Below, piece by piece: positions 2,772-64,000 of a stretch of DNA of 64,000 nt; the first letter of the stretch is position 1, and each line of letters opens with the position of its first letter. The notes under the pieces are model-generated. The model saw only the letters and a program-made list of their open reading frames with translations, was not told the origin of the DNA and searched no databases. The stretch covers positions 4,598-68,597 of the forward strand of contig JAJYLC010000001.1 of NCBI GenBank assembly GCA_021787935.1. The letters run 5' to 3'. A program made the translations under genes and the position numbers. Origin of the DNA: Chloroflexota bacterium (GTDB taxonomy: Bacteria > Chloroflexota > Dehalococcoidia > SZUA-161).

Positions 2772-2837
2772 TTAAGAGCCAAGGGTAATAAATTCAATAA
2801 AATTCGCGTTACGATGACAGTCAGTGGATATGAGAGC

Positions 2838-4395: not shown

Positions 4396-4803
4396 ATGGA
4401 TAAACGTAAAATCCGTGTATTGCTTGGTAAGATAGGGCTTGATGGCCATGATAGAGGGATAAGGATGATCGCCACATGGCTCTCCAAAGGTGGCATGGAA
4501 GTAGTGTATATGGGAACCCATCAGACAGCAGAGCGCATGGCGCGAACGGCGATCGATGAGGATGTAGATGTTATTGGCCTGAGTTTCCAGGGGGCAGACC
4601 ATGTTCCCTTGATCAGAATGATGGCTGACCAGATAAAGCGCAACAACCTGGAAGACAGACTGCTTGTAGTCGGTGGCAATATTCCTCGCCGTGATATCGA
4701 AGTGCTAAAGCAGATGGGGGTTGATGAGGTGTTCCCCAGCGGCACAGCTATGAGCAAGTGCGTGGCCTACGTCCGGGAGAATGCTTTCAAGAGGAGGAAT
4801 TGA
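4396..4803 (+). CDS. acyl-CoA mutase B12-binding small subunit (methylmalonyl-CoA mutase C-terminal domain-like)
   Basis: 135 aa; canonical cobalamin-binding DxHxxG motif (GLDGHDRG) and MCM B12-domain-like sequence. Confidence 0.85.
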   Translation: MDKRKIRVLLGKIGLDGHDRGIRMIATWLSKGGMEVVYMGTHQTAERMARTAIDEDVDVIGLSFQGADHVPLIRMMADQIKRNNLEDRLLVVGGNIPRRDIEVLKQMGVDEVFPSGTAMSKCVAYVRENAFKRRN

Positions 4804-9597: not shown

Positions 9598-11388
9598 TCA
9601 GGCGCTCTCCCATTCAGCCTGAATGATGGACGGGAGTTTGACAGCCCGTTCTTTCCCGCTCATGAAGTCAAGGTATCTGATGCCCTGCGGATCGATCTTC
9701 CTGATAAGTTCGAGTTCCTGCACTGTGGGTAATTTGGTAACTGGGCAATCAGAAGGTACTTCGACTTTGAATCCTGTATTATTGGCAACATCTTCTGCCT
9801 TAATACCCTTGTGCAGAGAGAGGGCTTTCCATTTGCCTCGCTCGACCATCTGCATGACACAGAGATTAGTCACCACAATCAGAGGACCAGGGCGCAGCCC
9901 CTGTGCCTTGCGTTCCTCGTCGGTAAAATAGTATCTCGTGCCCGTAATATAGTTAACCTTGGGTACAAATGTGTTTTTTGAGTGTCCGGCAAAATAGGCA
10001 ACTCCCTTTCGATGCAATCCGTAGACCACAGGTGCTCCGGCCCCTCCGGGAAGACGGATGGCGCGTGGGTTGATCTGGCCTGTTGGTTTGCCCTCTGCAT
10101 CTTTGACTGGCAGGGCTAGCCAGGAAATGTTGATGTCTCCGTTAGCATCCAGTTGCGCGCTGGAAACAGCTTCCACATCGCCCATACCTCTGAGGTGTAG
10201 TGCCTCAATGCATTCAGTCATAGACCAGAGTCCGGCCGCATACTCAGTGCACGCAGCCTCCGAGGAGTGGAAACTCAACTGGAATGGAAGAGGGTCAACA
10301 CCGCTATAACCAACGATGAAGGCATTGGGTGCGTGCGTCAGCTTGGCCAGCATGTATGCAGTGTACGCCAGTGGCGTGAACGAACCTAATATAATAGAAT
10401 CGCCATCTTCGATGGTGCGTGCCAGGCTGACCACCATCTGGTCCGCGGCATCAAACTCAAGTGCCGGTTCTTTGCTCACAGTAGAGGGAAATTCAATGTA
10501 CTTAGCATGTTTGGCCAGGCTGGAGAGTTTTCTTTTTGTTACATCCCCACCTACATTTCTTAGATACTCCTCCTCATTTTCACCAATGAGTTGCCGGATA
10601 TATTCTGGAGCCATTTTGGGGTCGCCAAGACCCTGGACATCTTTCATCATTTGCAACAGATGAGCGGAATAGTAAGGTACACAACTACAAGGAGCAGCAC
10701 CAAAGGGGCAATGGATTACCAGGTCCACTTCAGGTCTGAACAGCACGGTTGCCGTTTTATTTGTGCGAATTTGTTCTGGCGAGACAATCTCCTCCACGGT
10801 GACGATAACTGACCTGGCAGCCATTGCCATATCGAGGTCAGATGCTGACGTGCCGAAGATCTGTACATTGCCTTGCTCATCAGCCCTTTGTGCATGGATG
10901 ATCGCCACATCTGGTGATATAGCCTGTACGGCTGTAAGTTCTTTCCCGGTAAAAGGGCAAGTCACTGTTTTATATAGTTCAGGTGCTTCTTTGATGATAT
11001 CAGATCCCTTGGGCCCAGCGAATGCGGCAAAGGGCAGGCCTCTACCAGCGGCCTGTAGCCCCTTGACCATGCTGCAGCCCTCGATTTCGGTTAGTTTAAT
11101 CAATTTTCTCTCTGCGACTCTGCGGAAGTTGGGAGGCAATCCGAACGACTCCAGGCTCAAGAAGCTGAACACTAGATGGTCAACCGCACCGGCTGCCAAC
11201 AGCCATTCCATTTCCCATCCCCCAACGATAGACATCACTTTCAAACCAGTGATTTTCTGCCGGATGATTTCTCTGATGATTGCCATAGGCTTATTGCAGC
11301 TCCATCCACCCCCAATGCCCACAAAACTTCCATTTTTCACATATCCTTTGATGTCGCTCAATTTCCCCAGCTTGCTACGCAAAGTCAT
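9598..11388 (-). CDS. family I CoA-transferase, fused A/B subunits (glutaconate/3-oxoacid CoA-transferase-like)
   Basis: 596 aa. N-terminal KLSDIKGYVKNGSFVGIGGG resembles CoA-transferase subunit A. Length consistent with an A+B fusion. Confidence 0.6.
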   Translation of the reverse strand: MTLRSKLGKLSDIKGYVKNGSFVGIGGGWSCNKPMAIIREIIRQKITGLKVMSIVGGWEMEWLLAAGAVDHLVFSFLSLESFGLPPNFRRVAERKLIKLTEIEGCSMVKGLQAAGRGLPFAAFAGPKGSDIIKEAPELYKTVTCPFTGKELTAVQAISPDVAIIHAQRADEQGNVQIFGTSASDLDMAMAARSVIVTVEEIVSPEQIRTNKTATVLFRPEVDLVIHCPFGAAPCSCVPYYSAHLLQMMKDVQGLGDPKMAPEYIRQLIGENEEEYLRNVGGDVTKRKLSSLAKHAKYIEFPSTVSKEPALEFDAADQMVVSLARTIEDGDSIILGSFTPLAYTAYMLAKLTHAPNAFIVGYSGVDPLPFQLSFHSSEAACTEYAAGLWSMTECIEALHLRGMGDVEAVSSAQLDANGDINISWLALPVKDAEGKPTGQINPRAIRLPGGAGAPVVYGLHRKGVAYFAGHSKNTFVPKVNYITGTRYYFTDEERKAQGLRPGPLIVVTNLCVMQMVERGKWKALSLHKGIKAEDVANNTGFKVEVPSDCPVTKLPTVQELELIRKIDPQGIRYLDFMSGKERAVKLPSIIQAEWESA

Positions 11389-11480
11389 GTTTTGCCCTCT
11401 CTTATTTTGGATTCAGGGTGAGGTTCAGGGATATCGAAAATCGATACAAAAAGGTGCTATCATTCTAGGATTTGCGAGAC

Positions 11481-11518
11481 TGAATGTCAATCTTGAATGT
11501 ACTGAATGCTCTGAATTG
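11481..11518. promoter_or_regulatory. array of four TGAAT(G/T) direct repeats in a divergent intergenic region
   Basis: TGAATGT at 11481, TGAATGT at 11494, TGAATGC at 11503, TGAATTG at 11512 (spacing 13/9/9 bp). Lies between divergently transcribed CDS 9598-11388(-) and 11616-12605(+). Confidence 0.3.
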
Positions 11519-11615
11519 ACGAGTAATTGAGTGAGCTATATACTAATAACTACTTCTTAAGAGCTACAACGGTTCGTTTGGAGTAATCTAGAATTTAGAT
11601 AGAAAGAGAGTGAAT

Positions 11616-12605
11616 ATGGCCGAAAAGAAAAAGCGGTTTAGAGTACTCATCAGTGACCCTTTGCTTAAGGAGATGGTGAATGAGGCAAAGAAACAGTACC
11701 CGGAATACATTTCTAAGATAGATTTTGAGATTATGGAAAAAGCTGATGAACAGGAGCTTAGAGATAAGCTCCCTGGAGTTGATATTCTCATGTGCGCCAG
11801 GAGCAGGATAAACAGGAATGTGCTGGAGAAAGCGGATAAACTGTTTTTTATTCAGCAATGCAGTGCAGGATACGACAATATAGACCTCAAGGCAACAAGG
11901 GAGAAAGGTATCGATGTTTCAAATGCAGGTGGTGCCGGGGTTATTCCGGTGGCAGAGCATACGATAATGCTTATGCTGGCTATATCTAAGAACCTGATAA
12001 AGTCTGATAGAACCATGAAAGCGGGTGAATGGATATTCGGGGAGTGCGTTGGGAGGGTTTACGAACTGAGGGACAAGGTAGTGGGAATAATAGGACTGGG
12101 GAAAATCGGGGCTCAAGTAGCCCGGCTCGCCTATGCATTCGGTATGCGGATACAATACTACGATCCGTACCGAAAAGATACCAGCGACTTGGGCTTTCCT
12201 GCTAAAGCGGTATCATTGGAAGAATTACTGAAGACGTCAGACTACGTTAATATACATACTTTGTTGACACCTGAAACAAGGAGTCTCATCGGGCGAAAAC
12301 AACTGGAAATGATGAAGCCTACAGCATATTTAATAAATACCTCCAGAGGTGCTGTGGTTGATGAAGAGGCGTTGGCGGATATATTGCAGGCCAAGAAGAT
12401 AAGGGGGGCTGGGATAGATGTTTACGGAGAGCATGGTGACCCACCCCCAAAGAACAGCAGGTTGCTGAAGCAAGACAATGTGGTGCTAACGCCCCATATT
12501 GGTGGAGTTACCGCCGAGGACCTTTATCGTAACTTCTACGTTTCATCTTTGGGCAATGTTATCGCCGTGATCAAAGGGGAGAAGCCCAAATGGGTTATAA
12601 ATTAA
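11616..12605 (+). CDS. D-isomer-specific 2-hydroxyacid dehydrogenase (NAD-binding)
   Basis: Track ORF from GTG 11610; the ATG at 11616 is preferred. GLGKIGAQVARLA Rossmann motif and D-2-hydroxyacid dehydrogenase catalytic-domain similarity. Confidence 0.8.
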   Translation: MAEKKKRFRVLISDPLLKEMVNEAKKQYPEYISKIDFEIMEKADEQELRDKLPGVDILMCARSRINRNVLEKADKLFFIQQCSAGYDNIDLKATREKGIDVSNAGGAGVIPVAEHTIMLMLAISKNLIKSDRTMKAGEWIFGECVGRVYELRDKVVGIIGLGKIGAQVARLAYAFGMRIQYYDPYRKDTSDLGFPAKAVSLEELLKTSDYVNIHTLLTPETRSLIGRKQLEMMKPTAYLINTSRGAVVDEEALADILQAKKIRGAGIDVYGEHGDPPPKNSRLLKQDNVVLTPHIGGVTAEDLYRNFYVSSLGNVIAVIKGEKPKWVIN

Positions 12606-12707
12606 AAAGACTCCTGTATTCCTGACCTGGAAATAAACTCGTATATGGTGATGCAATTTATATCAGCAATTAAATGTAATTAGATATATGCAATATAGGA
12701 GGAAAGA

Positions 12708-14360
12708 ATGCTACAGACGAAAAAAGGTGACACACTCGGAACAATACTGGACCGAGTGACCGCAAAGTATCCCAAGAACGAGGCTATGATCCATGGCAGC
12801 GCAAGGATAACCTATGACACGTACATGGATAAGGTGAACTCGATAGCCAACGCCTTGCTGAAGCTGAGCGTGAAGAAGGATGACAAAGTATCCATCTGGA
12901 TGAGCAATAAGCCTGAGTGGGTCTACGCTCATTTCGCGGCAGTGAAAATAGGTGCGCCTGTCATACCGCTAAGCACTCGATACAAGACGCATGAACTCGA
13001 ATATATTCTCAAGAAGTCTGATACTACTACCCTCTTCATGATGGAACGTTTTCTAAAACTGGACTATATTCCTATGATTTACGAGCTATGTCCAGAACTT
13101 AAGACATGCAAGCCCGGAGACCTGCGAAGCGAAAGATTCCCGCTACTTAAGCGGATTATCATATTGAGTGAAAAAAGCTATGACGGAATGCTGGATTATT
13201 ACAAGGTACTGGAGTCTGGAAAGGATTATTTGAACAGCGCTGCATTGAAAAAAGCCCAACAGGCCATCAAGCCCGAGGATGTCTACATAATCCCATTTAC
13301 CTCGGGTACGACTGGTTTCCCCAAAGGAGTGGTTACCACCCATTCCCAGTATATAGGAGTCATAGAAGGCTTCAGTGAAAGATTCCAGATGACTGATAAG
13401 GATCGCATTCTGGTTGTATCCCCATTCAATAATAACATGGGTAATATGACCGGTCTTACGCTGGGAGCACTACACGGGGCCTGCATTCTACCTATGGAAA
13501 GCTTCGATCCAGGAGAGGCTCTGAGGCTGATAGATGAGGAAAAGGCTACGAACTTCACAGGCGCTCCAACGATGTATATTATGATGCTCGATCACCCTGA
13601 CTTCCCCAAGCGAAATACTAAGTCTATAAAAAGTGCCATAATCGGCGGAGCCGATGTTTCTCCCGATTTGGTAAAGACTATTATCGAAAAGATGGGCATA
13701 AAAGACATGATAGCCGGCTATGGCATGACCGAAAACACCGGTATCAGCACCTGTACAAGGCGAGGAGACCCGCCCGAGTTGGTCGCAAATACTGCTGGCA
13801 AGCTCATGTTCAAAGGTTGTGATCTAAGGATTTTCGATCCTGATACTGATAAAGAAGTACCCCGGGGCACCCAGGGTGAGATTCGTACAAAGGGCTGGTT
13901 TGTAATGAAAGAGTATTACAAGATGCCCGAAGAAACTGCAAAAGCCTTTGATAAGAGCGGCTGGTTCCACACCGGCGACCTGGGCGTGATGGATGAAAAG
14001 GGATATATAAAGATCACCGGCCGTTTGAAAGATATGTATATTTCAGGCGGTGTAAACGCATATCCTGCGGAGATAGAGAGCTTCCTTTATACACACCCAA
14101 AGGTGGCAATGGTTGCCGTATTTGGTGTGCCAGATAGGAGGATGGGTGAGGTAGGCGCAGCCTTCATAAAATTGAAGGATGGCCAAACTGCAACAGAGGA
14201 AGAGATTATAGCGTTTTCTAAAGAAAGGTTGGCCAATTACAAAGTCCCCAAGTATATAAAATTTGTAAAAGATTTTCCCATGACCCTTACAGGAAAGGTT
14301 CAGAAGTTTGTGCTAAAAGAACAAATCGTGAAGGAATTGGCGCTGGATAAGCAGCAATAA
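12708..14360 (+). CDS. AMP-dependent acyl-CoA synthetase/ligase
   Basis: 550 aa; AMP-binding motifs (PFTSGTTGFPKGV; YGMTE; GWFHTGDLG…ITGRLKD). Confidence 0.85.
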   Translation: MLQTKKGDTLGTILDRVTAKYPKNEAMIHGSARITYDTYMDKVNSIANALLKLSVKKDDKVSIWMSNKPEWVYAHFAAVKIGAPVIPLSTRYKTHELEYILKKSDTTTLFMMERFLKLDYIPMIYELCPELKTCKPGDLRSERFPLLKRIIILSEKSYDGMLDYYKVLESGKDYLNSAALKKAQQAIKPEDVYIIPFTSGTTGFPKGVVTTHSQYIGVIEGFSERFQMTDKDRILVVSPFNNNMGNMTGLTLGALHGACILPMESFDPGEALRLIDEEKATNFTGAPTMYIMMLDHPDFPKRNTKSIKSAIIGGADVSPDLVKTIIEKMGIKDMIAGYGMTENTGISTCTRRGDPPELVANTAGKLMFKGCDLRIFDPDTDKEVPRGTQGEIRTKGWFVMKEYYKMPEETAKAFDKSGWFHTGDLGVMDEKGYIKITGRLKDMYISGGVNAYPAEIESFLYTHPKVAMVAVFGVPDRRMGEVGAAFIKLKDGQTATEEEIIAFSKERLANYKVPKYIKFVKDFPMTLTGKVQKFVLKEQIVKELALDKQQ

Positions 14361-18013: not shown

Positions 18014-18090
18014 AGGGGTGTAGCTCAGTCAGGTAGAGCGGCGGTCTCCAAAACCGTTGGTCGTGGGTTCGAATCCTGCCACCCCTGCCA
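18014..18090 (+). tRNA. tRNA-Trp (anticodon CCA)
   Basis: Cloverleaf folded by hand. Acceptor AGGGGTG/CACCCCT, D-loop with GG, anticodon loop CTCCAAA, T-loop TTCGAAT, discriminator G plus encoded CCA. Nearly identical in layout to E. coli tRNA-Trp. Confidence 0.85.
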
Positions 18091-18093
18091 TTT

Positions 18094-18181
18094 GCCGAGG
18101 TGGTGGAACCTGGTAGACACGCCATCTTGAGGGGGTGGTGAGCGAAAGCTCGTAGGAGTTCAAATCTCCTCCTCGGCACCA
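18094..18181 (+). tRNA. tRNA-Leu (anticodon GAG), long variable arm
   Basis: Acceptor GCCGAGG/CCTCGGC; anticodon stem CCATC/GGTGG with loop TTGAGGG; long variable arm TGAGCGAAAGCTCGT; T-loop TTCAAAT; ACCA end. Confidence 0.8.
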
Positions 18182-18205
18182 TGCTATAATAGTAACGTGA
18201 AGCGA

Positions 18206-18280
18206 GCGGAAGTAGTTCAGCGGTAGAATGCCTCCTTGCCAAGGAGGAGGTCGCGAGTTCGAATCTCGTCTTCCGCTCCA
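18206..18280 (+). tRNA. tRNA-Gly (anticodon GCC)
   Basis: Acceptor GCGGAAG/CTTCCGC; anticodon stem CCTCC/GGAGG with loop TTGCCAA; T-loop TTCGAAT; encoded CCA. Confidence 0.85.
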
Positions 18281-18282
18281 AT

Positions 18283-18354
18283 GGCGACGTAGCCAAGTGG
18301 TAAGGCGGGGGTCTGCAAAACCCCTATTCAGCGGTTCGAATCCGCTCGTCGCCT
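18283..18354 (+). tRNA. tRNA-Cys (anticodon GCA)
   Basis: Acceptor GGCGACG/CGTCGCC; 3-bp D-stem typical of tRNA-Cys; anticodon stem GGGGT/ACCCC with loop CTGCAAA; T-arm AGCGG-TTCGAAT-CCGCT; no encoded CCA. Confidence 0.85.
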
Positions 18355-18356
18355 CT
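18313..18356 (+). repeat. 44-bp direct repeat copy 1 (3' half of tRNA-Cys from the anticodon loop to 2 nt past the gene; putative attL)
   Basis: ctgcaaaacccctattcagcggttcgaatccgctcgtcgcctct is identical to 22750-22793. Confidence 0.8.
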
Positions 18357-18801: not shown

Positions 18802-20073
18802 TTAGTTATTCCAGTTTCCGTCCCAAGTCGTATAAACATTGGTGACTGTTCCTAAGCTGTCCCATGTGCTGTCCCACCCCACTTCTGGGAATAAACTGTG
18901 GGGGATATACTGTTGCCCCACTTGGACATTGACTGTTTTTACACATCTTGTGGGGCCTGGTGAGTTAGTATCATCCACATAGACCAAACCCATATCGGTT
19001 GTTTGGAATGCGTCAAGGGCATGTCCACCAGTGTACCCAGACAAGTCGATTGAGACATAGGCACATCTGATTCCCGCCATCTCGGCGTCATTGTGAAGCC
19101 TTTCGGCAAAATCAGCACACACTTGAGGAGGGCTAGGCTGCTCTGTGCCATCAATAATACCTTGAATACGAGTCAGGTCAACATAGCTCTCAGCGGAACC
19201 GTAATATGACCCTGGTACCGACAGGCTGTAAGTGTATGGAAACTGGTCCGTTCTATCTTGTTGCAGGAAGCTCACCATCTGAGCATAGGTCGGATTGACA
19301 GCGTCCTTATTATTGATGAGCACGATGAAATGGCCGCTGTCATCGTAGCAACCATTACCAGAAAGCGTTCCTTCTGGTGTGTCTACCAGTCCTAGGTAGT
19401 AATTCTTGTATATGCCTGTTCGGCTGTTTATGCCTGCGCGTGTCTGACTTGGCGCTGGCGCAGTGGCTCTGGTTCCAGTCGAACTCGGGATGGGATTTGC
19501 CGACGACGATTGTTCTCCTTGGGAATTTCCGCCCTTATGGAACCATTCTACGACTGCATTCTTGGCTTCGTATAATGGACTCACCTTGGCGTAAGCTGCG
19601 ACTGAACATCCTATCAGGGCTACAAGGATCAGGGAGACGAATATGGTACCGTATCTTCTGACTTTATACTTTCGCACATCGCTAAACGTAATGATATCCC
19701 ATAGAGCAACAATCCCAGCTGCTGTCATAATTCCTATGACGACTGGTCGTGCAAGCTCAGGAATGTGATAGTACGTATATGCAATAATTCCTATAGCCGA
19801 AGCTGTTAGCAAGAGCAATATTAAAGATTGACTCCAACGGGACTGTCTCCGAGAGCGTAACTTACCCAGTGCAGAATTGATAGGCTTACTACGATGCTGA
19901 TGTACATGACCCGCTCCATAACTGGGTGTGGGAAAACTGTATTCACACCGGCCACACCGCCAAGAGCGATAGTGCCTATTATAGTAGACCTTAGTGCTTC
20001 CGCATCGTGGACATAATGGTGCGCCCCTTGATTCCTTCTGGGCTGCCCAATATTCGTCTTCTCTCTTAGGCAT
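18802..20073 (-). CDS. zinc-ribbon / 3-TM / transglutaminase-like cysteine-protease-domain membrane protein
   Basis: 423 aa. N-terminal CPRCG…CGRC ribbon and three hydrophobic helices. C-terminal VCADFA…AGIR…GHALDAF…VDDT matches the transglutaminase-like core (C…H…D with the GxCxxFA-like motif). Paralogous to CDS 20096-21643. Confidence 0.6.
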   Translation of the reverse strand: MPKREDEYWAAQKESRGAPLCPRCGSTKVYYNRHYRSWRCGRCEYSFPTPSYGAGHVHQHRSKPINSALGKLRSRRQSRWSQSLILLLLTASAIGIIAYTYYHIPELARPVVIGIMTAAGIVALWDIITFSDVRKYKVRRYGTIFVSLILVALIGCSVAAYAKVSPLYEAKNAVVEWFHKGGNSQGEQSSSANPIPSSTGTRATAPAPSQTRAGINSRTGIYKNYYLGLVDTPEGTLSGNGCYDDSGHFIVLINNKDAVNPTYAQMVSFLQQDRTDQFPYTYSLSVPGSYYGSAESYVDLTRIQGIIDGTEQPSPPQVCADFAERLHNDAEMAGIRCAYVSIDLSGYTGGHALDAFQTTDMGLVYVDDTNSPGPTRCVKTVNVQVGQQYIPHSLFPEVGWDSTWDSLGTVTNVYTTWDGNWNN

Positions 20074-20095
20074 AGGGTAACCACTTATTATTGTA

Positions 20096-21643
20096 TTACC
20101 AGTATATCTCCACAGTACTAACGATACCCAACGGCAAAACGGTCCAGTCTGTGGGCAAAATGAATTGAGGCGTATATTCTGTGCCTGGCTTCACTGACAC
20201 GGTTGTGTCGTTGTTTGAAGGTCCTGCCTGTCCTGGTGGTATTCCAGTGCAATCTATATATTTCAATCCTTCGTCTGTTGTAACGAAGGCATCCAGAGCA
20301 TGACCAATGGTCTGCCCTTGGAAAGTGACAAAGACGAATGCTGTCCTGATTCCCGCTGCCTCCGCATGGTCGTAGACATCCCTGGCGAAGTCAGCGCATG
20401 TGTACGTTGGCATGATGTATGGGTTGCTGTCTGTCTTATCCGCAAGTATGAAGCTTTCAAGTTGTGCCCAAGTTGGGTTCTGCGCCGCGGAATTCCTCGT
20501 CAGGGTTACAGATACGCCCGCCGCGTCAGTGACTGCGGGTTGTATCCCGGAGTATACCGTGATTCCCGTATCCTGATAGAGTTTGAGTTGTGTTTGAAGC
20601 TGATTGACTGTATTCTGCAAGGAAGTTATTTGGCTGTTTAGGCCGCTAATCTCTGATTTGGTGTTGTTCAAATCGGCTGTGGTTGTGCTCAGCTTGCCTT
20701 GTACTGTGACTAGCTCATTCTCCTTTGCCTGCACCTTGCTGTGGGAACTTTCAGAAACCCAAAACACGCTGACTAAGACCAGTAGAATTATAATGAAAGG
20801 GAATGCAATAGTTGCATAGCGAATTCTGAGATTACCGAATTTCAACAAGCCAATCATAGCAGCAGCGCTCCAGATTGCGGCGATTGAGGCGACTAAGATT
20901 AACCCAATAGCGGCATATCCAAGCCCGCTAAACTGAAAAGTTGCATAACCTATGAGTGCCAGGCACGCGAAGATTAGAATCAAGTAACGCGCATTTCTAC
21001 GAACAGCACTTACGTTCCTAAGTCTACCTGGGGCAACCATCATATTGCATAAAGAATTGAGGCATTCATAGCCAGATGTATTAGGGTTCCAATAGAGTGT
21101 ACCTTGCCCACAACCCGGACATATCTTCATTATTTGCCTTACAAAATGCCTCGGCTGTTCAAGTTGCACTTCAGGCGGCCGCTGTTGTTGTACTGCTATC
21201 TCACCCACTTCACTCTTTTGAAAATTACGTTTACACGCCGGATTGAAACACTCATGTAGTTTGACGAAGTGGTTCCAGTACAGCGACTTTTCACTGCAGG
21301 CAGGACACTGCCGCATCTCTGGCTCGTTGCGCTGGCTACCTAATTGCCTTTCGCGCAAAGCCATTTGTTCGCACCGGCAAGTGTCACACTCATATTTATA
21401 ATACTTGTGGTGCTTATAGCAGTATTTCACGCTATCACCAAAGGCACTGGCATATTCTTCTCGTGGTGCTCGCCCTTCCTCGGTTCTGTTCTCTTTCCAT
21501 ATGGGGCTCTGTTTGCACTTCGGATTTGTGCATTCTTTGGCCCTAGTGAATGGATTCCAGAAGAGGGACATTTCCCCACAGGCAGGGCACCGTTGAAACG
21601 CTGGGGTGTCCATCTGGCTATGCGAAGATTCGTCCTCTTTCAT
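20096..21643 (-). CDS. multi-zinc-ribbon / TM / coiled-coil / transglutaminase-like domain membrane protein
   Basis: 515 aa. Three CPxCG…C ribbons with the repeated module CPACSEKSLYWNHFVKLHECFNPACKRNF. Two hydrophobic stretches (~45 and ~21 aa) that could each hold one or two TM helices; the ~45-aa one is long enough for two. Q/N/L-rich coiled coil. C-terminal TCADFARD…AGIRTAFV…GHALDAFVTTDEGLKYIDCT (C-x31-H-x16-D). Confidence 0.6.
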   Translation of the reverse strand: MKEDESSHSQMDTPAFQRCPACGEMSLFWNPFTRAKECTNPKCKQSPIWKENRTEEGRAPREEYASAFGDSVKYCYKHHKYYKYECDTCRCEQMALRERQLGSQRNEPEMRQCPACSEKSLYWNHFVKLHECFNPACKRNFQKSEVGEIAVQQQRPPEVQLEQPRHFVRQIMKICPGCGQGTLYWNPNTSGYECLNSLCNMMVAPGRLRNVSAVRRNARYLILIFACLALIGYATFQFSGLGYAAIGLILVASIAAIWSAAAMIGLLKFGNLRIRYATIAFPFIIILLVLVSVFWVSESSHSKVQAKENELVTVQGKLSTTTADLNNTKSEISGLNSQITSLQNTVNQLQTQLKLYQDTGITVYSGIQPAVTDAAGVSVTLTRNSAAQNPTWAQLESFILADKTDSNPYIMPTYTCADFARDVYDHAEAAGIRTAFVFVTFQGQTIGHALDAFVTTDEGLKYIDCTGIPPGQAGPSNNDTTVSVKPGTEYTPQFILPTDWTVLPLGIVSTVEIYW

Positions 21644-21714
21644 CAGCGTTACCTCCTCTAGCGGCTGCTTTTCTAACGGAAATTACTCGGCTAGCCTGCT
21701 GATAATAAATTCAC

Positions 21715-22446
21715 CTACTTGGGTAAGTTGCCTACTTGCTTTGAGTCATTGTCAGGCGGAAGCTGTTGCCCTATTCTTGCAGCTAATTCGCTTCTCGTAA
21801 AATTGAGTCTGCACCTTGGGTTAAAGCATTCATATACTTTTGTAAAATGATTCCATTGTAGCGATGGTTTTTCACAAACGGGGCATTGTCGCAGATCCCT
21901 GGCTTTCTGCACCTTATCCGCAGACTCTTGACGCAGAGTCTGTTGTTCCAGGCGGCATTTATCACACTCAGTGTTGTAGTATGTCTTATGCTTGTAGCAG
22001 TACATGGGTGTCTCTACCTGGGCAGCCCTTGGTCGCTCCTCTGACCTTTGAGGTCGGCTAGTAGATAAGTTTGTGAAGTTGGTAGCTATGAAAGTTGGTG
22101 AAGTCGATTTCGCCATGAGCTTGCGGCTGAGGTATCGGTTGGGAGAAACATACCTTACACGGTACTTGCCAAGCGGAATAATGGGTATGAATATCAGGCA
22201 GAAGTACTTGGTCTGTACGATAGAGGAACATACGGGGCAGCGTAACCCTCCACCGTATAACCTTGTTCCGATTCCGTTGAGGGTTGTGGTTGAGCCTGCG
22301 CTCTCAGCAGTGGTAGCATCTGCACATTTTTGGCAGAATCCGGGAAAATGCCGGAAGTTTTGACATTCCTTGGAACAATAGACACCGAGTTCATCCCGGG
22401 GGCCCCAGACAACGCGAGATCCGCAATTGCTACATTTTTCAAACAT
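21715..22446 (-). CDS. multi-zinc-ribbon protein (paralog of the N-terminal regions of 20096-21643; no TM or TGase-like domain)
   Basis: 243 aa. Modules YCYKHKTYYNTECDKCRLEQQ and CPVCEKPSLQWNHFTKVYECFNPRCRLNF are near-identical in pattern to YCYKHHKYYKYECDTCRCEQ / CPACSEKSLYWNHFVKLHECFNPACKRNF in the neighbouring protein. Confidence 0.5.
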   Translation of the reverse strand: MFEKCSNCGSRVVWGPRDELGVYCSKECQNFRHFPGFCQKCADATTAESAGSTTTLNGIGTRLYGGGLRCPVCSSIVQTKYFCLIFIPIIPLGKYRVRYVSPNRYLSRKLMAKSTSPTFIATNFTNLSTSRPQRSEERPRAAQVETPMYCYKHKTYYNTECDKCRLEQQTLRQESADKVQKARDLRQCPVCEKPSLQWNHFTKVYECFNPRCRLNFTRSELAARIGQQLPPDNDSKQVGNLPK

Positions 22447-45874: not shown

Positions 45875-46654
45875 ATGTTGAAACTGGCGATCACAGGGAA
45901 AGGCGGGGTAGGCAAAACTACCCTGGCAAGCCTGCTGTCTCGCCTTTATGCTGCCGAAGGCAATACTGTGCTGGCTATAGACGCCAATCCAGATGCCAAC
46001 CTGGGGACAGCCCTAGGTATCTCCTCAGAGGAACTCAGTCGTATCACTCCCATTGCAGAAATGAAGGAATTGATAGAGGAGCGCACGGGAGGCAAGCCTG
46101 GCACCACGGGTGGTATCTTCAAACTCAACCCCAAAGTGGATGATATCCCTGACCGCTTCTCTATAAAGAAAGATGGATTGAGACTGCTCGTTATGGGTAC
46201 AGTGAAGAAGGGCGGAAGCGGCTGCATGTGCCCTGAGAGCGCTCTGCTCAGAAACTTGCTGAATCACCTCGTTCTCCGGAAGTCCGAGATCGTGATTATG
46301 GACATGGATGCTGGCATCGAGCACCTGGGGCGAGCCACAGCTACTGCCGTGAACGCCTTCATAGTGGTGGTGGAGCCAGGTCAGAGAAGTGTGGAAACGG
46401 CGAGGGCTGTAAAGAGGCTGGCCCAGGATATAGGCATAAAGAAATGCTATGTCGTGGGCAATAAGATTGCCAGCGATGCTGACCGCCAGTTCATTACGGA
46501 GAACCTACCCGATTTCGAGCTTCTTGGTTACATTAGCTTCAATCCCAAGATCGCCGAGGCTGACCGCAAGGGCATCAGCCCCTATGACAATGACAACAAA
46601 GTAATATCCGAGGTAAAATCGATTAAAGAACGGCTGGAAGCTATCTCGAGGTGA
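45875..46654 (+). CDS. CooC/AcsF-family P-loop ATPase (putative Ni-insertion accessory protein)
   Basis: 259 aa; deviant Walker A GKGGVGKTT and the CooC-characteristic CxC metal motif (GSGCMCPES). Confidence 0.55.
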   Translation: MLKLAITGKGGVGKTTLASLLSRLYAAEGNTVLAIDANPDANLGTALGISSEELSRITPIAEMKELIEERTGGKPGTTGGIFKLNPKVDDIPDRFSIKKDGLRLLVMGTVKKGGSGCMCPESALLRNLLNHLVLRKSEIVIMDMDAGIEHLGRATATAVNAFIVVVEPGQRSVETARAVKRLAQDIGIKKCYVVGNKIASDADRQFITENLPDFELLGYISFNPKIAEADRKGISPYDNDNKVISEVKSIKERLEAISR

Positions 46655-57732: not shown

Positions 57733-58071
57733 ATGCTTACAAAAGATGTGGGACGTAAACAACTGAATCTGGTGAGCCTAACCAAGGCTCTTGCGGTCGT
57801 CTGGGTTATCCTGTCCCTGGCCGAAGCTGGTGTCACCTACATAGCCTTAAATGATGTTGCCAACATCGAAGGCAACCCATTCGCCAGATTGTTGCTATCT
57901 CACAACGCAGCACTGTTCTACGGGGCAAAACTTTTGGTTACCGCCGCTGTGGGGCTAGGGTTCTGGCGGCTCGCCGACAGGACTAAACACCTCAAGCTGA
58001 TGCTCGCTTGTCAGATACTGTTGGTCGTAATCTTTGCAGGTATCCTCGGCAACAATATTCTGCATATCTAG
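57733..58071 (+). CDS. small integral membrane protein (hypothetical)
   Basis: 112 aa, three to four predicted TM helices, conserved-looking EGNPF motif. Abuts the archaellum-like cluster. Confidence 0.4.
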   Translation: MLTKDVGRKQLNLVSLTKALAVVWVILSLAEAGVTYIALNDVANIEGNPFARLLLSHNAALFYGAKLLVTAAVGLGFWRLADRTKHLKLMLACQILLVVIFAGILGNNILHI

Positions 58072-58113: not shown

Positions 58114-58770
58114 CTATTCAGGGCGTTCCTTTTTTATCTTCTTGGCAATCTGAGCGATCTGTTTACTTTCCTCCAGCAGCGAATACACGCTCGTGTCACT
58201 CAGCTCTTTAGATAGAGTACTGGTTGTTTCCAAGGTAAGCTCCTCGCTTCTGAATATGTCCAGCACACTTTCAATTTTCTCATCCCCTGGAGGGCTATCT
58301 GCGGATGGCTTATCAGCCGCTTCAATCTTCTGGCTGCCCGACTCAAGTACCGGGGGCACCACTTCAGTTCCCGATGGAACTCCACTTGCCTCACCTTCAA
58401 CCTGACTGACTTCCTCCTTTTCACTATCGTGAAGCATGGTTACAGGAGTCTCTACCTTTGAATCAGGGTGAATCGGGTTTTCCAACTGGCCCCCCGCTGT
58501 CTGAACTGCTGCTTCAACTTTTTCTGCGCCGACCACACGCTCGTTGTTAGCCTCGATAGGCGGGGCGACACCTTGCGATGGCACACTGGCTGCATTGGGT
58601 GCATCGCTCACTTCATCCTCAGACTGATTGGTTGCCAGCTTCTTGCTCTCAAGGAATTCCCCTACCGGATCATGTTCCAGAGGAAGCTCCCCTTCATCCC
58701 CTTTGACCGACCCCGTAAGGGGACTTAATGGTCGTTTCACTACTGACTGAATCCATTGGATGATGTTCAT
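58114..58770 (-). CDS. acidic low-complexity protein (hypothetical, last gene of fla-like operon)
   Basis: 218 aa, rich in E/D/S/P/V with a predicted disordered middle. Immediately downstream of the flaJ-like gene on the same strand. Confidence 0.4.
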   Translation of the reverse strand: MNIIQWIQSVVKRPLSPLTGSVKGDEGELPLEHDPVGEFLESKKLATNQSEDEVSDAPNAASVPSQGVAPPIEANNERVVGAEKVEAAVQTAGGQLENPIHPDSKVETPVTMLHDSEKEEVSQVEGEASGVPSGTEVVPPVLESGSQKIEAADKPSADSPPGDEKIESVLDIFRSEELTLETTSTLSKELSDTSVYSLLEESKQIAQIAKKIKKERPE

Positions 58771-58790: not shown

Positions 58791-60305
58791 CTAAGACATC
58801 TTGGGTATCGAAGAGAATATCTTCTCTGCCATTATGGGCACAAAAACCAGCATTGCGCCTGATACGCCCAGAGTCACCGCAAGGTAGTTGTAAAGTTTAT
58901 ACTTGTTGCCGCCATCAGCCGCCTTGATAGCGAAGGCGTTGGCACCGGCCAGAGCTAAAATGACTGGTACCACCAGAGTGCCCAGCATGTGAACGTTCTT
59001 GAAGCTGAAACTGAATATTTGAACTGTGCTCATGGGAGCACTTGCCACCGCTTGGTTATAAACCCCCTCCACTGTTTTGGAAAAGATATTAATCACCTGT
59101 GTCACGAACAACAGCAGAGCCACAAGGGCAACGTGCATGCCCAGCACCAGTATCACGAATGAAGACGATACCTGCGCCCTCTTGGCACGAAGGAAGTCCA
59201 GGCTCATCGCTATTATAGAAGAACGATTCCCCACCTCCTCAGGATCGCCTCCCAGCCTGGTGGCATCGTTAAACATCTTCACGCTTCGGTATATCGTTTC
59301 ACTGCCTGTCTCCAGAGAAAAACGCTGCCAGCAGAGCTCCGGCTTAAGTCTGGAAATCAACCTGGAGCGAAGGCGTTTCACATCGTTAGCCAAGTTTGCT
59401 GTCGATCTCAGGTCTAACCTATCCAGAGCGTTGGACACGGTAACCCCAATCGCCGATGCCACGTTCCCCAGCGACCTGAGAAAAGTGCTGATGTCAGAAT
59501 CTTTCTTGGTCACCTGCCGGTCGAAAATTGTGCCTGCTATACCTATAGGAAGCAGCAGCGCACCTGCTACCATTAGCGCCCACCCCAGACCAACGCCTGC
59601 CATCATAAATACAGCAAAAGCTGCTATGGAAACCGGAATCAATATCCTGGCTAAATGTTGAGCGCGACTGTGGGCGGCGCAATTCAAGACTTGAGGGTGT
59701 ACCCTGATCTCTTTAGGCGATACCCTATATATTGCCCAAGCCCCCAGTATTGAAATAACGATGGTAACTCCTACTAGCGACACTGCGATCCAGGTTGCCA
59801 CGGGGTATATAAGCATGGAGATAGCAGCTACCATAACAATCAGGGCAGCAGACACGATGAGAGCCCCATATGCTTCCGTCCACTTTTTCAGCGATTCCAC
59901 CCCGCGCTCGTATTCATTCTTAAAGGCTTCTGCCTGAATCTGCGCTTCCTGAGCCAGGAATTCTGACTCAGGCTCTCCCGAACCCAGCGAACTGGAAAGG
60001 CGCAATAGCAGGCCTTTAACCGACTCCTCCTTGGCCGATTCTCCGACGATGCGGCAAGCCACGGCATAGTCATATCGCATCTTCTTTGCCAGAAGATGAA
60101 TCTCAGCAAAATAATGCGATGAGGCGCAGGGGAGTTGAGAGGCGAACTCGAATATCTGACTGCGCGGTATCCCTGCTGCAGCAATAGATGACATATACGC
60201 CAGTTGGTAAAACAGGTCGTAACTCAGGTAATCGCTGTTACCACTGCTTTTATTGTTAGAAAAGTCTTTCTTGCTGCGCTCTGGCAAGAACTTTGAGAAG
60301 TTCAT
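58791..60305 (-). CDS. flaJ: archaellum/type IV pilus assembly membrane protein (FlaJ/TadC, GspF-like)
   Basis: 504 aa polytopic membrane protein with a cytoplasmic N-domain. Size and position after the FlaI-like ATPase match FlaJ; 50-nt overlap with the upstream gene. Confidence 0.6.
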   Translation of the reverse strand: MNFSKFLPERSKKDFSNNKSSGNSDYLSYDLFYQLAYMSSIAAAGIPRSQIFEFASQLPCASSHYFAEIHLLAKKMRYDYAVACRIVGESAKEESVKGLLLRLSSSLGSGEPESEFLAQEAQIQAEAFKNEYERGVESLKKWTEAYGALIVSAALIVMVAAISMLIYPVATWIAVSLVGVTIVISILGAWAIYRVSPKEIRVHPQVLNCAAHSRAQHLARILIPVSIAAFAVFMMAGVGLGWALMVAGALLLPIGIAGTIFDRQVTKKDSDISTFLRSLGNVASAIGVTVSNALDRLDLRSTANLANDVKRLRSRLISRLKPELCWQRFSLETGSETIYRSVKMFNDATRLGGDPEEVGNRSSIIAMSLDFLRAKRAQVSSSFVILVLGMHVALVALLLFVTQVINIFSKTVEGVYNQAVASAPMSTVQIFSFSFKNVHMLGTLVVPVILALAGANAFAIKAADGGNKYKLYNYLAVTLGVSGAMLVFVPIMAEKIFSSIPKMS

Positions 60306-62013
60306 AGAAGTCGCGCACTCCCTTTTCTTTATGTAGTTTTTCCAGAATCCTCGCCCTCCGCTCCACTAAGGAGTATATCTGCATCTTCTTGTCGGGGGGG
60401 ATGCCACGCTTTAGGGCAATCTTGTCCTCGAGGAGGTAGCTATTTCTTTTGCCCACAAAATCAAAGGTATCGGTCACCGGGCTCCAACGAAATACCTCTA
60501 CATAGGAGAAGGTATTTGTAACCGGGTCATAGCCGACTATCTCGCTGATGCTTGTGGCGCGGCGCCCTATTTTCCCGCTGGGCAGTTTTACCGCATTCTG
60601 ACAGACTACAACGTTCAAGTTATCTATATAGGTCTTGGGTACGTTGATCGGATTCCCCGTGAGACGTTGAATTAACTTCTCCACATTAGCTGCGTGGAAA
60701 GTGCTCATCACTTCATGGCCTGTCTGCATCGCTCCAAAGGCAATGTTCCCTTCCTCTCCTCTGATTTCACCCACGATTATTACATTAGGACGCTGTCTCA
60801 AGGCAGCCTTCAACAGGTCAAACATACTTACGCTGGCCCCTTTGTCTCCCTGTCCCGGTGCTCGAGATACCTCTCGAAGCCAGTTGGCATGGGGCACCTG
60901 AAGCTCGGGGGTATCTTCGATGCTCACTATTTTGTGGCTCATCGGGATGAAGGTAGTTACAGCGTTGAGCAATGTAGTCTTGCCTGATGCTGTTTCGCCG
61001 ACGACAAACAGATTCATGCCATCTTCTATCACCACAGAAAGGTAGGCTGCCATTTCGTAGCTCACGCTTCCAAACTCGATAAGCTCAATGATACTGAGCG
61101 GAGTCTCACTGAACTTTCTGATGGTGAAATTGCTGCCGCGTCGCGAGACCTCCCTGCCAAAGACTATGTTTATGCGTGACCCATCCGGCAAGGTGGCATC
61201 TACTATCGGATTGCGCAATGTTACAGGCCTCTTTATCTGCTCGGAAAGGCGCAGCACGAAATCGTCCAGGTCCTCATGAGTTTCGAAGGTTATGGCCGAT
61301 TTAACGCCCTTGAAAATCTTGTGCTCCAGAAATATGGCCCCCAGCCCGCTGCAACTGATGTCCTCTATATATGTATCCTTAATCATCACGTCAATGATGC
61401 CCATTCCCACCTTGTCTCGGACGATAAGGTACTTCAGGGCTTCGAGTTGTTCTGGAGTGACCTGCACCTTAGCTTTAGTAGCAACCTTGCTCCCGTTGCC
61501 ACCATTGCCCTTGCCATCTTTAGTATTAGAAGAAGGTGCAGCAGAGCTGCTTCGGTGCACTATACACACGACATCAATCAGTTTCAGGATGGCTTCTTTT
61601 CTCTCCGCCTCGGACTCCGCCTGGCTCATTCCACCGGCTACATCGACCAGTTTGCCCTCCACCGCTGGCAATACCTGGCTTATCTCCTGAGTTAGACTTG
61701 GCTCTATCGGGATATAAACAGGCCTGCTGCTGCCGGGCTCGGAATAAACATGAACATAGATATTGTCCGATACCCGATAAATGAGGTTTTTTTGCGGCAG
61801 GTCGCCCTGTGCCCGCGTGATCTTGGTATAGTATTCCGGCACGCCGATCTCACTGACAGGAATCATGCGCAGGTAGTCCAGAAGATGCTTATCCTGCTTA
61901 CAAGCCTCCTGCAGCTCCTCGGGCAGCAACTGCAAGAGGTCTCCCTCAGACATGCTGTTCTGGGGAGACCCTGCCTCGCCCTGTCCGCTAAAGGGCAAAA
62001 TTATCTTGGGCAT
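60256..62013 (-). CDS. flaI: archaellum/type IV pilus assembly ATPase (FlaI / VirB11-TadA superfamily)
   Basis: 585 aa; Walker A GETASGKTT, T2SS-E family motifs (…SIEDTPEL…), long N-terminal domain typical of FlaI. Confidence 0.7.
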   Translation of the reverse strand: MPKIILPFSGQGEAGSPQNSMSEGDLLQLLPEELQEACKQDKHLLDYLRMIPVSEIGVPEYYTKITRAQGDLPQKNLIYRVSDNIYVHVYSEPGSSRPVYIPIEPSLTQEISQVLPAVEGKLVDVAGGMSQAESEAERKEAILKLIDVVCIVHRSSSAAPSSNTKDGKGNGGNGSKVATKAKVQVTPEQLEALKYLIVRDKVGMGIIDVMIKDTYIEDISCSGLGAIFLEHKIFKGVKSAITFETHEDLDDFVLRLSEQIKRPVTLRNPIVDATLPDGSRINIVFGREVSRRGSNFTIRKFSETPLSIIELIEFGSVSYEMAAYLSVVIEDGMNLFVVGETASGKTTLLNAVTTFIPMSHKIVSIEDTPELQVPHANWLREVSRAPGQGDKGASVSMFDLLKAALRQRPNVIIVGEIRGEEGNIAFGAMQTGHEVMSTFHAANVEKLIQRLTGNPINVPKTYIDNLNVVVCQNAVKLPSGKIGRRATSISEIVGYDPVTNTFSYVEVFRWSPVTDTFDFVGKRNSYLLEDKIALKRGIPPDKKMQIYSLVERRARILEKLHKEKGVRDFYELLKVLARAQQERLF

Positions 62014-62021
62014 AGCAACCC

Positions 62022-62750
62022 CTAAGCCTTGGCCTTAGAATATGGTATCACTCTGATACCCCAGTTAGGTTCGACATCAAAAGAGATGATATTGCCTGTG
62101 TTGAGGTCGGCGCCCCGCACCTTGGCCACTTCCAGAATTTTTATCATCTTGCTTCCCATGGTTTCTATACGCAATCTCAAGTGAGCGTCACACATCGACC
62201 CCAGCCTGACCATGGCGGTTTCATCGAAGGCATACGAGTGCGCTACGCAGACAATACCCATCCCCTTGGCGGAAAGCCTCTTACAGTCTTCGAAGAAGGA
62301 TAGCACTTCCTCCATGGAAGCATGGGTCACGTAGTAGGTAATGGAATCGATTATCGCCATATCGACGCCCTTATTGGCATAACTTTCGAGCATGGGCAAT
62401 AGACCTGTGCCCAGGCTGCGCCTCGTTTTCTTGGTGTCTATAGGGTAGACCCACAATCGGGAAAGCAGGAGATAGTCCATGATATCCAAATTCAAGCTCT
62501 GCATCTGACTCACCAGACTCTTCACCGTGTTCTCGGTGGTAAAGACCACAGCACTGCACCCCTTTTTCAGAGAGCCCCAGACCATTTGCTGGGTGAGCAC
62601 CGATTTGCCTGAATCGGGCTGGCCCTCAACAAGGCTGAGCGACCTTAGCGGTATCCCGCCGCCTATCTTCTTGTCCAACTCATCATTCCCTGTGGAGATT
62701 ATTCTAGGATCATTCTCCGAACCTGTCCTCATTGGAATCCTCCTAACCAC
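62022..62750 (-). CDS. flaH: KaiC/RecA-like ATPase, FlaH-like
   Basis: 242 aa; ISTGNDELDKKIGGGIPLRSLSLVEGQPDSGKSVL is a close match to the FlaH N-terminus; KaiC-like fold. Confidence 0.7.
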   Translation of the reverse strand: MVRRIPMRTGSENDPRIISTGNDELDKKIGGGIPLRSLSLVEGQPDSGKSVLTQQMVWGSLKKGCSAVVFTTENTVKSLVSQMQSLNLDIMDYLLLSRLWVYPIDTKKTRRSLGTGLLPMLESYANKGVDMAIIDSITYYVTHASMEEVLSFFEDCKRLSAKGMGIVCVAHSYAFDETAMVRLGSMCDAHLRLRIETMGSKMIKILEVAKVRGADLNTGNIISFDVEPNWGIRVIPYSKAKA

Positions 62751-63276
62751 TAAATTGTGCTGAAGTCGCCACTCCGTTGTCGGTGGATACAGTCACGAAG
62801 TTAGTAGTACCCATACCTGGCAGCGGAGCAAGGCTCAACCTCATTAACATCACCTCACCCGGGTCCAGTATGCCGGGCTCGAAAATCTCTTTTTGTGTCA
62901 GACTCGCGTCTGTATATATGCCAACGATAGTCCACTGGCCACTAGCTGGGCTTGGGTTTTCAGTATACGTTAGATCGCTGATATGATAGCCATTGCTCGC
63001 ATCATAGTACTGCACCAGCACATCCCACTTATCAAATTGGGCCAGGTGCACCTCACCGCTATTAAGAACAGATATTTGAACAAAGCCCCCTTGCATTTGG
63101 GCACCGACAATCTTGATATCAGTCCTCGACACATCCTGTGTTACCTGTGTCGTCTGCTTCAAAGCTTGAGAGACAGAGTCAAATGAAGTGTAAGCGGTCT
63201 GTGACCAGGTCAAAACCGCCGTCAGCATTAACGCTATAACAACCAGTGCCACAATTGCATTGCTCATAGTAATCAC
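62743..63276 (-). CDS. FlaF-like protein (N-terminal TM helix + beta-rich domain)
   Basis: 177 aa; single N-terminal hydrophobic helix then a beta-rich domain. Position (G-F-H-I-J order) as in archaeal fla operons. Confidence 0.4.
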   Translation of the reverse strand: MITMSNAIVALVVIALMLTAVLTWSQTAYTSFDSVSQALKQTTQVTQDVSRTDIKIVGAQMQGGFVQISVLNSGEVHLAQFDKWDVLVQYYDASNGYHISDLTYTENPSPASGQWTIVGIYTDASLTQKEIFEPGILDPGEVMLMRLSLAPLPGMGTTNFVTVSTDNGVATSAQFSG

Positions 63277-63788
63277 ATACTGAAATCGTATTCATCAGAC
63301 ACACCATTAGGGATCATGACCTTGACATTGTATAGTCCTGACGGAAGAGGACTGTTATAGCTTATCTCAATCATCAAGGTATTTGCTATGCCCCATTCAG
63401 TGCTATTACCCAACACATAGCTCCAGCGTGGAAATGTGCTCCCTGCGTAATCAACGTAGGGTATCCACGTCCAGATAGTGTTGTTGCCAGCCAGAAAGAC
63501 ATCACAATGTTTAATGTCATCCACAGGTACCGTGCCTATATTCTTTACCCACACAAACACATCGAAGTAGCCATTGGAATTCGTATCCTGCCAGTTTCCA
63601 TTCTTATCCAGCTCACCGGTAGCATTGATAATCTTGATCTGGCTTTTTATACGTTCGTTCATACTGGCAGAAACGCTGCTCAGTGCCCCGCTGGAACTAG
63701 TAATAGCCGGATATACAGCGTTGATTACCAGAACAACACATACCACTGCTGCAACCACCAATAATATGGTGCTTAGCACTTTATCCAT
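63273..63788 (-). CDS. FlaG-like protein (N-terminal TM helix + beta-rich domain)
   Basis: 171 aa; MDKVLSTILLVVAAVVCVVLV helix then beta-rich domain. GAAGGAG RBS upstream of the ATG at 63788. Confidence 0.4.
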   Translation of the reverse strand: MDKVLSTILLVVAAVVCVVLVINAVYPAITSSSGALSSVSASMNERIKSQIKIINATGELDKNGNWQDTNSNGYFDVFVWVKNIGTVPVDDIKHCDVFLAGNNTIWTWIPYVDYAGSTFPRWSYVLGNSTEWGIANTLMIEISYNSPLPSGLYNVKVMIPNGVSDEYDFSM

Positions 63789-63790
63789 GG

Positions 63791-64000
63791 CTAGCCGCTC
63801 CTTCTATTTTTCTGCCCCTTATCGAGAAGCATTGACAGGACAACTGACTCAAGCGCCCCCGTGTGGTAGCGCAGAAGGCTATCGAGTTCTATCAGCAGTT
63901 GCATACTTGCCGTCGCCGGTAAATTTTCACCTTCTTCAGTATGACTGCCATTGTCATAGAGGTCTGCCAGCAATAGGATAACCTGCTTCAGCCGGGGCGG
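63791..64000 (-). CDS. 3' end of an upstream minus-strand gene running off the window (unknown product)
   Basis: Reading frame of ORF 63791-63973 stays open to the window end (…PPRLKQVILLLADLYDNGSHTEEGENL…KGQKNRRSG*). Would lie upstream of the FlaG-like gene. Confidence 0.3.
   Translation of the reverse strand, partial: PPRLKQVILLLADLYDNGSHTEEGENLPATASMQLLIELDSLLRYHTGALESVVLSMLLDKGQKNRRSG

Follow-up and report, generated by a model that had tools for sequence, protein, structure and literature searches.

A probable arl2-type archaellum operon on a Dehalococcoidia chromosome, with two conserved uncharacterised genes

Does a row of archaellum-like genes standing among the housekeeping genes of a bacterium encode an archaellum, and what is its history in this lineage? 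The question is raised by one end of a 64,000-nucleotide stretch of DNA from a Chloroflexota bacterium known from metagenome assemblies only (positions 4,598 to 68,597 of contig JAJYLC010000001.1, assembly GCA_021787935.1; hereafter the window), in which an initial annotation, made from the letters alone, had described five co-directional minus-strand genes for two FlaG/FlaF-like proteins, a FlaH homologue, a FlaI-type ATPase and a FlaJ-type membrane protein. An open reading frame (ORF) scan finds these five genes at the positions and with the lengths then given and, together with family scans, identifies them as ArlG, ArlF, ArlH, ArlI and ArlJ, in this order, at 58791-63788; structure matches support the same identities. 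We conclude that the locus is very probably an arl2-type archaellum operon, chromosomal in a bacterium of the Dehalococcoidia (Chloroflexota), anciently transferred and vertically inherited.

On the FlaI equivalog model NF058587 (cutoff 550), the ATPase ArlI obtains 666.5 bits, its match spanning model positions 2-520 of 527, compared with 155 bits on TadA (cutoff 373), 181 bits on BasE (cutoff 1000) and 59 bits on PilB; its Walker A motif reads GETASGKT. Among PDB entries it matches FlaI of Sulfolobus acidocaldarius (4ii7) with 445 bits, CpaF being the third-best family at 154 bits. That ranking, the kinship of Tad and archaellum ATPases (ATPase and platform share a distant common ancestry within the type IV filament superfamily) and a ParA/MinD-like ATPase gene elsewhere in the window are what could be said for a divergent bacterial Tad/Cpa pilus locus. 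However, ArlI is far closer to FlaI than to TadA, there is a single FlaJ-type platform rather than TadB plus TadC, the gene map contains neither a CpaE nor a Flp pilin, and the ParA-like gene lies 12 kb off. We therefore attach practically no weight to a Tad/Cpa origin, which the initial annotation had rightly set aside. The distant gene itself (45875-46654, plus strand) encodes a ParA/MinD/CooC-like P-loop ATPase amid glycolysis genes, which matches named families only weakly (45 bits on archaeal MinD); it is not a CpaE, reaching 28 bits where the CpaE-homologue model asks for 154.

The other four core proteins tell a consistent, if more divergent, story. ArlJ, a polytopic protein with multiple hydrophobic segments, matches the ArlJ/FlaJ model NF004703 over residues 18-498 (E=3.4e-124, 415 bits) and, weakly, PF00482 (T2SSF); since its score falls under the equivalog cutoff of 570, we regard it as a divergent member of its family. 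ArlH, which contains IISTGNDELDKKIGGGIPL...GQPDSGKS, with GQPDSGKS as its Walker A motif, is matched to FlaH and not to a generic KaiC, the outcome that the initial annotation had named as refuting: it reaches 263 bits on the FlaH subfamily model NF004723 (cutoff 194) versus 63 bits on KaiC, and in the PDB, FlaH 4yds comes first with 135.7 bits, the highest-scoring KaiC entry (8zn5) having 57 bits. On the ArlH equivalog model NF052589 it attains 194.7 bits, just under the cutoff of 215. ArlF combines an N-terminal transmembrane (TM) helix with an Ig-like domain and passes PF22201 (FlaF_Ig-like, 30.6 bits, cutoff 28.4), its best NCBIfam match, to the ArlF model (E=4e-7), staying far under the equivalog cutoff; the sole PDB match of its orthologue profile is FlaF 4p94 (E=3.5e-10). 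ArlG, with a TM helix at residues 1-33 followed by a beta-rich domain, passes PF01917 (33.3 bits, cutoff 29.5) and matches NCBIfam ArlG with E=1.8e-9 and 37.8 bits (equivalog cutoff 110); the only PDB match of its orthologue profile is the soluble domain of S. acidocaldarius FlaG (6pbk/5tug, E=0.003). Because the family scans and the FlaF and FlaG structure matches agree, the gene order is G then F, the arl2 arrangement. The G-F-H-I-J order read off originally is thus correct, whereas its likening to archaeal fla operons in general needs narrowing: G-F is the order of arl2 operons (Thermoproteota, Archaeoglobus, Methanotecta), and the classical euryarchaeal order is F-G.

An exact-protein look-up with ArlI led to an ENA metagenome contig, L001, which shows 0 mismatches to the window across 8,074 shared bases and, being identical over the overlap, is usable as its extension (window coordinate = 72014 minus L001 coordinate). 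With L001, the full locus reads HTH (helix-turn-helix, excisionase/BldC-like) - arlB1 - arlB2 - p216 - arlG - arlF - arlH - arlI - arlJ - p218, of which the window holds the distal two-thirds. The initial list of five genes was accurate as far as it went; it had missed two further genes of the same transcription unit encoded in the window, p218 and the C-terminal part of p216. The features are as follows.

57733..58071, plus strand: DUF5658 small membrane protein (PF18902, 40.2 bits), convergent with the operon
58114..58770, minus strand: p218, 218 aa, the last operon gene, starting 20 nt after arlJ
58791..60305, minus strand: ArlJ (FlaJ), 504 aa; NF004703, PF00482
60256..62013, minus strand: ArlI (FlaI), 585 aa; NF058587, 4ii7
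62022..62750, minus strand: ArlH (FlaH), 242 aa (236 aa from an alternative ATG); NF004723, 4yds
62743..63276, minus strand: ArlF (FlaF), 177 aa; PF22201, NCBIfam ArlF, 4p94 profile match
63273..63788, minus strand: ArlG (FlaG), 171 aa; PF01917, NCBIfam ArlG, 6pbk/5tug profile match
63791..64000, minus strand: p216, truncated by the window end to its last 69 codons and the stop; whole gene at L001 7573-8223, extended 63791-64441
L001 6890-7474, extended 64540-65124: ArlB2, 194 aa; PF01917, TIGR02537
L001 6220-6822, extended 65192-65794: ArlB1, 200 aa; PF01917, TIGR02537
L001 5858-6136, extended 65878-66156: HTH protein, 92 aa, excisionase/BldC/MerR-type, directly upstream of arlB1

Junctions between arlG and arlJ run tight, with overlaps of 4 nt, 8 nt and 50 nt (arlI/arlJ) and a gap of 8 nt; an overlap of 47-50 nt between arlI and arlJ is also seen in other loci with a single arlI copy. 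Promoter and terminator scans returned counts no higher than the shuffled expectation, and an Rfam scan of L001 gave no matches. Beyond the HTH gene, L001 encodes an alpha/beta hydrolase (abhydrolase), a radical-SAM protein and, at a greater distance, an integrase.

The expectation that archaellins lie just past 64000 proved right twice over. ArlB2 and ArlB1 score 91 and 85 bits, respectively, on PF01917, both are matched by TIGR02537 (archaellin/type IV pilin N-terminal domain), and both have class III signal peptides in which DERG directly precedes ITGLETAIILIAFVVVASVFA. Over 176 aligned columns, ArlB2 shares 55% identity (156 bits) with PDB entry 9i5h, a filament chain of archaellin type that was deposited under the name 'Flagellin' and that begins, when mature, with ITALETAI; since this mature start aligns with residue 14 of ArlB2, cleavage is predicted after Gly13. 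The accession 9i5h does not occur in the text of PMC12488501.

These filament proteins also bear on whether the locus could encode an archaeal-type type IV pilus that does not rotate and serves adhesion or uptake, in the manner of Aap, Ups or the bindosome, instead of a motility organelle. ArlI does match the ATPase of the bindosome, BasE, the scores of ArlF and ArlG are modest, and a few Chloroflexota are reported to have received an archaeal pilus in a separate transfer (PMC12488501). Nevertheless, the BasE score is dwarfed by that on the FlaI equivalog model, the archaellum-specific ArlH, ArlF and ArlG are all present, each matched to the structure of FlaH, FlaF or FlaG, and the filament proteins match archaellins, including 9i5h. 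A pilus of this kind is in our judgment very improbable, and we retain the archaellum as the reading of the locus.

Is the host truly a bacterium? Dxs, MiaA, DapF, DapL, HflX and GalU encoded on the same contig all pass NCBIfam equivalog cutoffs (DapL with 621 bits against 593, HflX with 468 against 217, GalU with 394 against 327), hence the host is bacterial, and the housekeeping character first ascribed to hflX, galU and dapL is borne out. As the source is a metagenome assembly, one might suspect an assembly or binning artefact in which an archaeal fragment was joined to bacterial sequence. Yet the GC content of the arl locus (0.48-0.51) is the same as that of the remaining window, without a break, the independent ENA assembly is identical over the overlap, and independent assemblies from different studies, one of them a closed 2.1-Mb chromosome, show the locus joined to bacterial sequence in the same way, with galU at one end and abhydrolase and radical SAM at the other; an artefact therefore has next to no chance of being the explanation.

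An ArlI scan of species-representative genomes yielded 16 loci, all in Dehalococcoidia or other Chloroflexota metagenome-assembled genomes (MAGs), at 95%-48% identity and including that 2.1-Mb chromosome and a 1.75-Mb contig. Synteny is kept, in whole or in the part that the contig reaches, in 13 of the 16 (L002-L010 and L012-L015), down to 67% ArlI identity, the conserved order being abhydrolase / radical SAM - HTH - arlB - arlB - p216 - arlG - arlF - arlH - arlI - arlJ - p218 - DUF5658 - galU. These conserved chromosomal flanks argue for long vertical inheritance in this lineage. The core arl genes show pairwise ratios of nonsynonymous to synonymous substitution rates (dN/dS) of 0.04-0.2 against three relatives, p216 one of about 0.2 and p218 one of about 0.3; every gene is thus under purifying selection and maintained by it.

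The integrase on L001 might at first sight be taken for a trace of mobility. It is a tyrosine integrase (1587-2765) which, together with a 327-aa ORF, occupies L001 573-2765 in this genome only, outside the radical-SAM flank; collinearity with L002 starts at L001 3041. The two form a strain-specific mobile element separate from the arl cluster. Because both genes lie outside the conserved block, they are no sign of recent mobility of the cluster, and a recent mobile-element origin was rejected, the integrase being strain-specific, beyond the conserved flank and absent from all relatives. The arl cluster is not a recent insertion; it has been vertically inherited in the lineage after the ancient transfer proposed in the literature.

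Several relatives depart from the common plan in their core genes. On the chromosome of Dehalococcoidia bin1158 (L013, CP070819.1), positions 10001-13567 encode tandem full-length ArlI paralogues of 581 and 583 aa before arlJ, a duplication of the motor ATPase in an otherwise syntenic cluster. In a Thermoflexus MAG (L016; 198-1475 and 2334-4340) we find a tandem ArlF-like pair and an ArlI of 668 aa with an Ala/Pro/Lys-rich insertion. A GC-rich Dehalococcoidia contig (L017, 9929-11629) carries an orphan ArlI-like ATPase of 48% identity and lacks any further arl gene for 10 kb around it.

A further consideration is whether the operon still works. In the 64-kb window and its 8-kb extension, no A24 prepilin peptidase turned up by gene content or by an A24 motif scan, nor did any che genes; the peptidase that had been expected just past 64000 is therefore not there within 8 kb, in agreement with the published Chloroflexota clusters, where the class III peptidase is encoded outside the locus (PMC12488501). 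Were the locus an inactive relic of an ancient transfer, no longer making a functional filament in this lineage, the failure to see peptidase and chemotaxis genes nearby would be accounted for, and the organism, being uncultured, offers no immediate rebuttal. What speaks against such decay is that none of the nine genes is broken and that they abut closely or overlap, that core-gene dN/dS is as low as described above, that synteny is conserved across the 13 related loci, and that, per the literature (PMC12488501), the peptidase is expected elsewhere in the genome. We consider a relic highly unlikely and an operon under selection, encoding an archaellum, the far better account.

This is not to say that everything falls into place. 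Three points weigh against an archaellum operon as we propose it. First, the class III signal peptidase and che genes were not found in the window or the extension, so that the system is at best presumably complete in this genome. Second, ArlJ, ArlF, ArlG and, on the ArlH equivalog model, ArlH all stay under the NCBIfam equivalog cutoffs. Third, the Pfam models for ArlCDE fail to recognise p216.

How does the locus compare with what has been described? The initial annotation spoke of archaellum loci in a few Chloroflexota genomes, an understatement given that clusters have been reported in 243 of 3,780 Chloroflexota genomes, Dehalococcoidia included (Sivabalasarma et al., Nat Microbiol 2025, PMC12488501); isolates of SAR202 also carry them (PMC10444878). 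The published clusters have the arlG-arlF (arl2) order with a gene termed arlCDE between arlB and arlG, a bacterial-type PilD is reported for non-SAR202 Chloroflexota, CheF is absent from Chloroflexota, and phylogeny points to one transfer from Methanotecta-like Euryarchaeota to the ancestor of Dehalococcoidia and Anaerolineae (PMC12488501). Litorilinea aerophila swims with its archaellum, the filament of which has been solved at 2.7 A, and it is the only one for which rotation and swimming have been shown (PMC12488501). Our locus resembles these clusters in gene set, in the arl2 order arlB - slot gene - arlG-F-H-I-J, in host class (Dehalococcoidia) and in having no peptidase within 8 kb. It differs in belonging to a different uncultured lineage, in a p218 gene after arlJ that we have not found described, and, compared with L. 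aerophila, in a conserved excisionase/BldC-type HTH gene upstream where that organism has pilN/pilO-LysM genes. The locus fits in every tested respect and either adds to the published Chloroflexota archaellum clusters or may already be counted among them.

Archaeal arl2 operons (S. acidocaldarius flaB-X-G-F-H-I-J; Archaeoglobus, Methanotecta) share with it the G-before-F order and the core proteins, ArlI, ArlF, ArlG and ArlH all matching the S. acidocaldarius structures of FlaI, FlaF, FlaG and FlaH, whereas the slot protein is p216 and not ArlX, and the host is bacterial. The euryarchaeal arl1 operons (arlB-C-D-E-F-G-H-I-J in Methanococcus and Haloferax) share the core components and the archaellin N-terminus; here, in contrast, the F-G order is reversed and separate ArlC, ArlD and ArlE genes are absent.

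By homology to the archaeal systems and to the experimentally studied archaellum of L. aerophila, the following course of events can be envisaged. The pre-archaellins ArlB1 and ArlB2 would be cleaved after the Gly of DERG, in front of ITGLETAIILIAFVVVASVFA, by an A24 prepilin peptidase encoded elsewhere. A hexamer of ArlI docked on the ArlJ platform would use ATP first for filament assembly and then for rotation, with the KaiC-like, ATP-binding ArlH probably acting as a modulator of ArlI. ArlF and ArlG would form the envelope-anchored stator, and p216 may take the cytoplasmic position of ArlCDE or ArlX.

The protein p216 deserves closer attention. In 13 related loci its 216-aa gene keeps its place between arlB and arlG, as it does in distant ones, and sequence searches of Pfam, NCBIfam and the PDB return nothing for it; neither PF04659 (Arch_fla_DE) nor PF05377 (FlaC_arch) matches p216 or 10 orthologues even at E<=10. 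Its AlphaFold2 (AF2) model, built with 32 homologues, consists of a helix (2-32), a disordered linker (44-106) and a C-terminal five-helix bundle (112-210), with pLDDT confidence values of about 86-90 over the first three helices of the bundle (112-162) and lower values from about residue 160. There is no TM or hydrophobic segment, hence p216 is not ArlX-like: ArlX of Thermoproteota has an N-terminal TM helix and a coiled coil, whereas p216 is modelled as a soluble helix, linker and helical bundle. It does share the ArlD-like architecture of the euryarchaeal arl1 systems, in which an N-terminal coiled coil is connected by a linker to a helical domain at the C-terminus.

When 1.84 billion representatives were searched exhaustively with a profile, 878 relatives of p216 emerged at E<=1e-3, a large family that is without family annotation. 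Its distant members share a coiled coil, ..LKNEIK.VLLDIRE..L...NPF, and a C-terminal motif, DL.T.A.L..W....G.ER.E...Y..G.L; the NPF that follows the coiled coil presumably resembles that of ArlC/ArlD. PF04659 matches weakly (E=0.0035) in only 2 of 86 distant relatives, among which there are no NCBIfam matches. Of six distant contigs inspected, five offered enough context (the sixth is too short), and in all five the gene stands directly after the archaellin gene(s) and/or directly before arlG/arlF, with arlH-arlI-arlJ next wherever the contig reaches; the surroundings are bacterial and include a bacterial-type A24 peptidase and response regulator/GerE genes. Word-indexed searches with p216 profiles gave only unannotated Chloroflexota proteins, the candidates of the second search being dominated by close family, and locus tags of p216 orthologues, sought in the supplements of the paper for an ArlCDE label, were not found there. 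Taken together, p216 is the Chloroflexota occupant of the ArlCDE slot, of ArlD-like architecture, and as far as sequence can tell, remote homology to ArlC/D/E is possible. In one distant arl cluster (L020, 1488-2258), a 256-aa Glu/Ala/Arg-rich coiled-coil protein absent from the lineage of the window is encoded between the p216-family gene and arlG.

At the other end of the operon, p218 is an acidic protein (pI 4.5) of 218 aa made of a conserved N-terminal motif, E.DPVGEFL, a linker of about 105 disordered residues and a C-terminal three-helix module (163-215) that AF2 predicts confidently (pLDDT 80-95). The gene is kept directly after arlJ in 10 loci, every one of the 131 relatives detected is unannotated, and there was no match in Pfam, the PDB profile search or Foldseek. 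In L020, a 177-aa gene in the position of p218 aligns with the C-terminal module (hhalign E=1.8e-4, probability 49%), which is suggestive of relatedness. The Thermoflexus locus has no p218-like gene after arlJ and carries a hybrid histidine kinase/receiver there instead.

The DUF5658 gene adjoins the 3' end of the operon in all related loci reaching that far and is also found near one distant arl cluster; its product is at best a tentative member of the arl system. The core of the HTH protein is 67-95% identical, with dN/dS of about 0.08-0.15, in related loci reaching that far, and the protein is a candidate bacterial-type regulator of the arl operon.

Three observations lie outside the operon. 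The closest relative, L002, encodes upstream of its radical-SAM flank (2241-3026) a 261-aa multi-pass membrane protein, which may be heliorhodopsin-like. Within the window, a Trp-Leu-Gly-Cys tRNA cluster occupies 18014-18355, adjoined by three consecutive minus-strand ORFs (18802-22446; 423, 515 and 243 aa) with zinc-ribbon-like Cys motifs.

What, then, might p216 and p218 do? It is plausible that both are lineage-specific accessory subunits. One could go further and propose that p218 and the p216 family are Chloroflexota-specific archaellum subunits adapting the archaeal motor to a bacterial cell, and that the HTH protein is the bacterial regulator recruited for the operon's control, a proposal we put forward tentatively and hold to be rather doubtful as a whole. 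Since CheF is absent from Chloroflexota, a possible role for p216 or p218 would be to supply the missing adaptor that links CheY to the motor; tethering to the bacterial envelope is likewise possible.

Remarkable as it is that an entire rotary motility machine passed from Archaea to Bacteria, such transfer has been on record since 2023-2025, Dehalococcoidia included. With the phenomenon already published, what is new here is confined to an added member and two uncharacterised conserved operon genes. The locus provides a well-resolved example with conserved chromosomal flanks, and p216 and p218 are reasonable candidates with which to approach the question raised in the literature of how signalling and the bacterial envelope are coupled to an archaeal motor without CheF.

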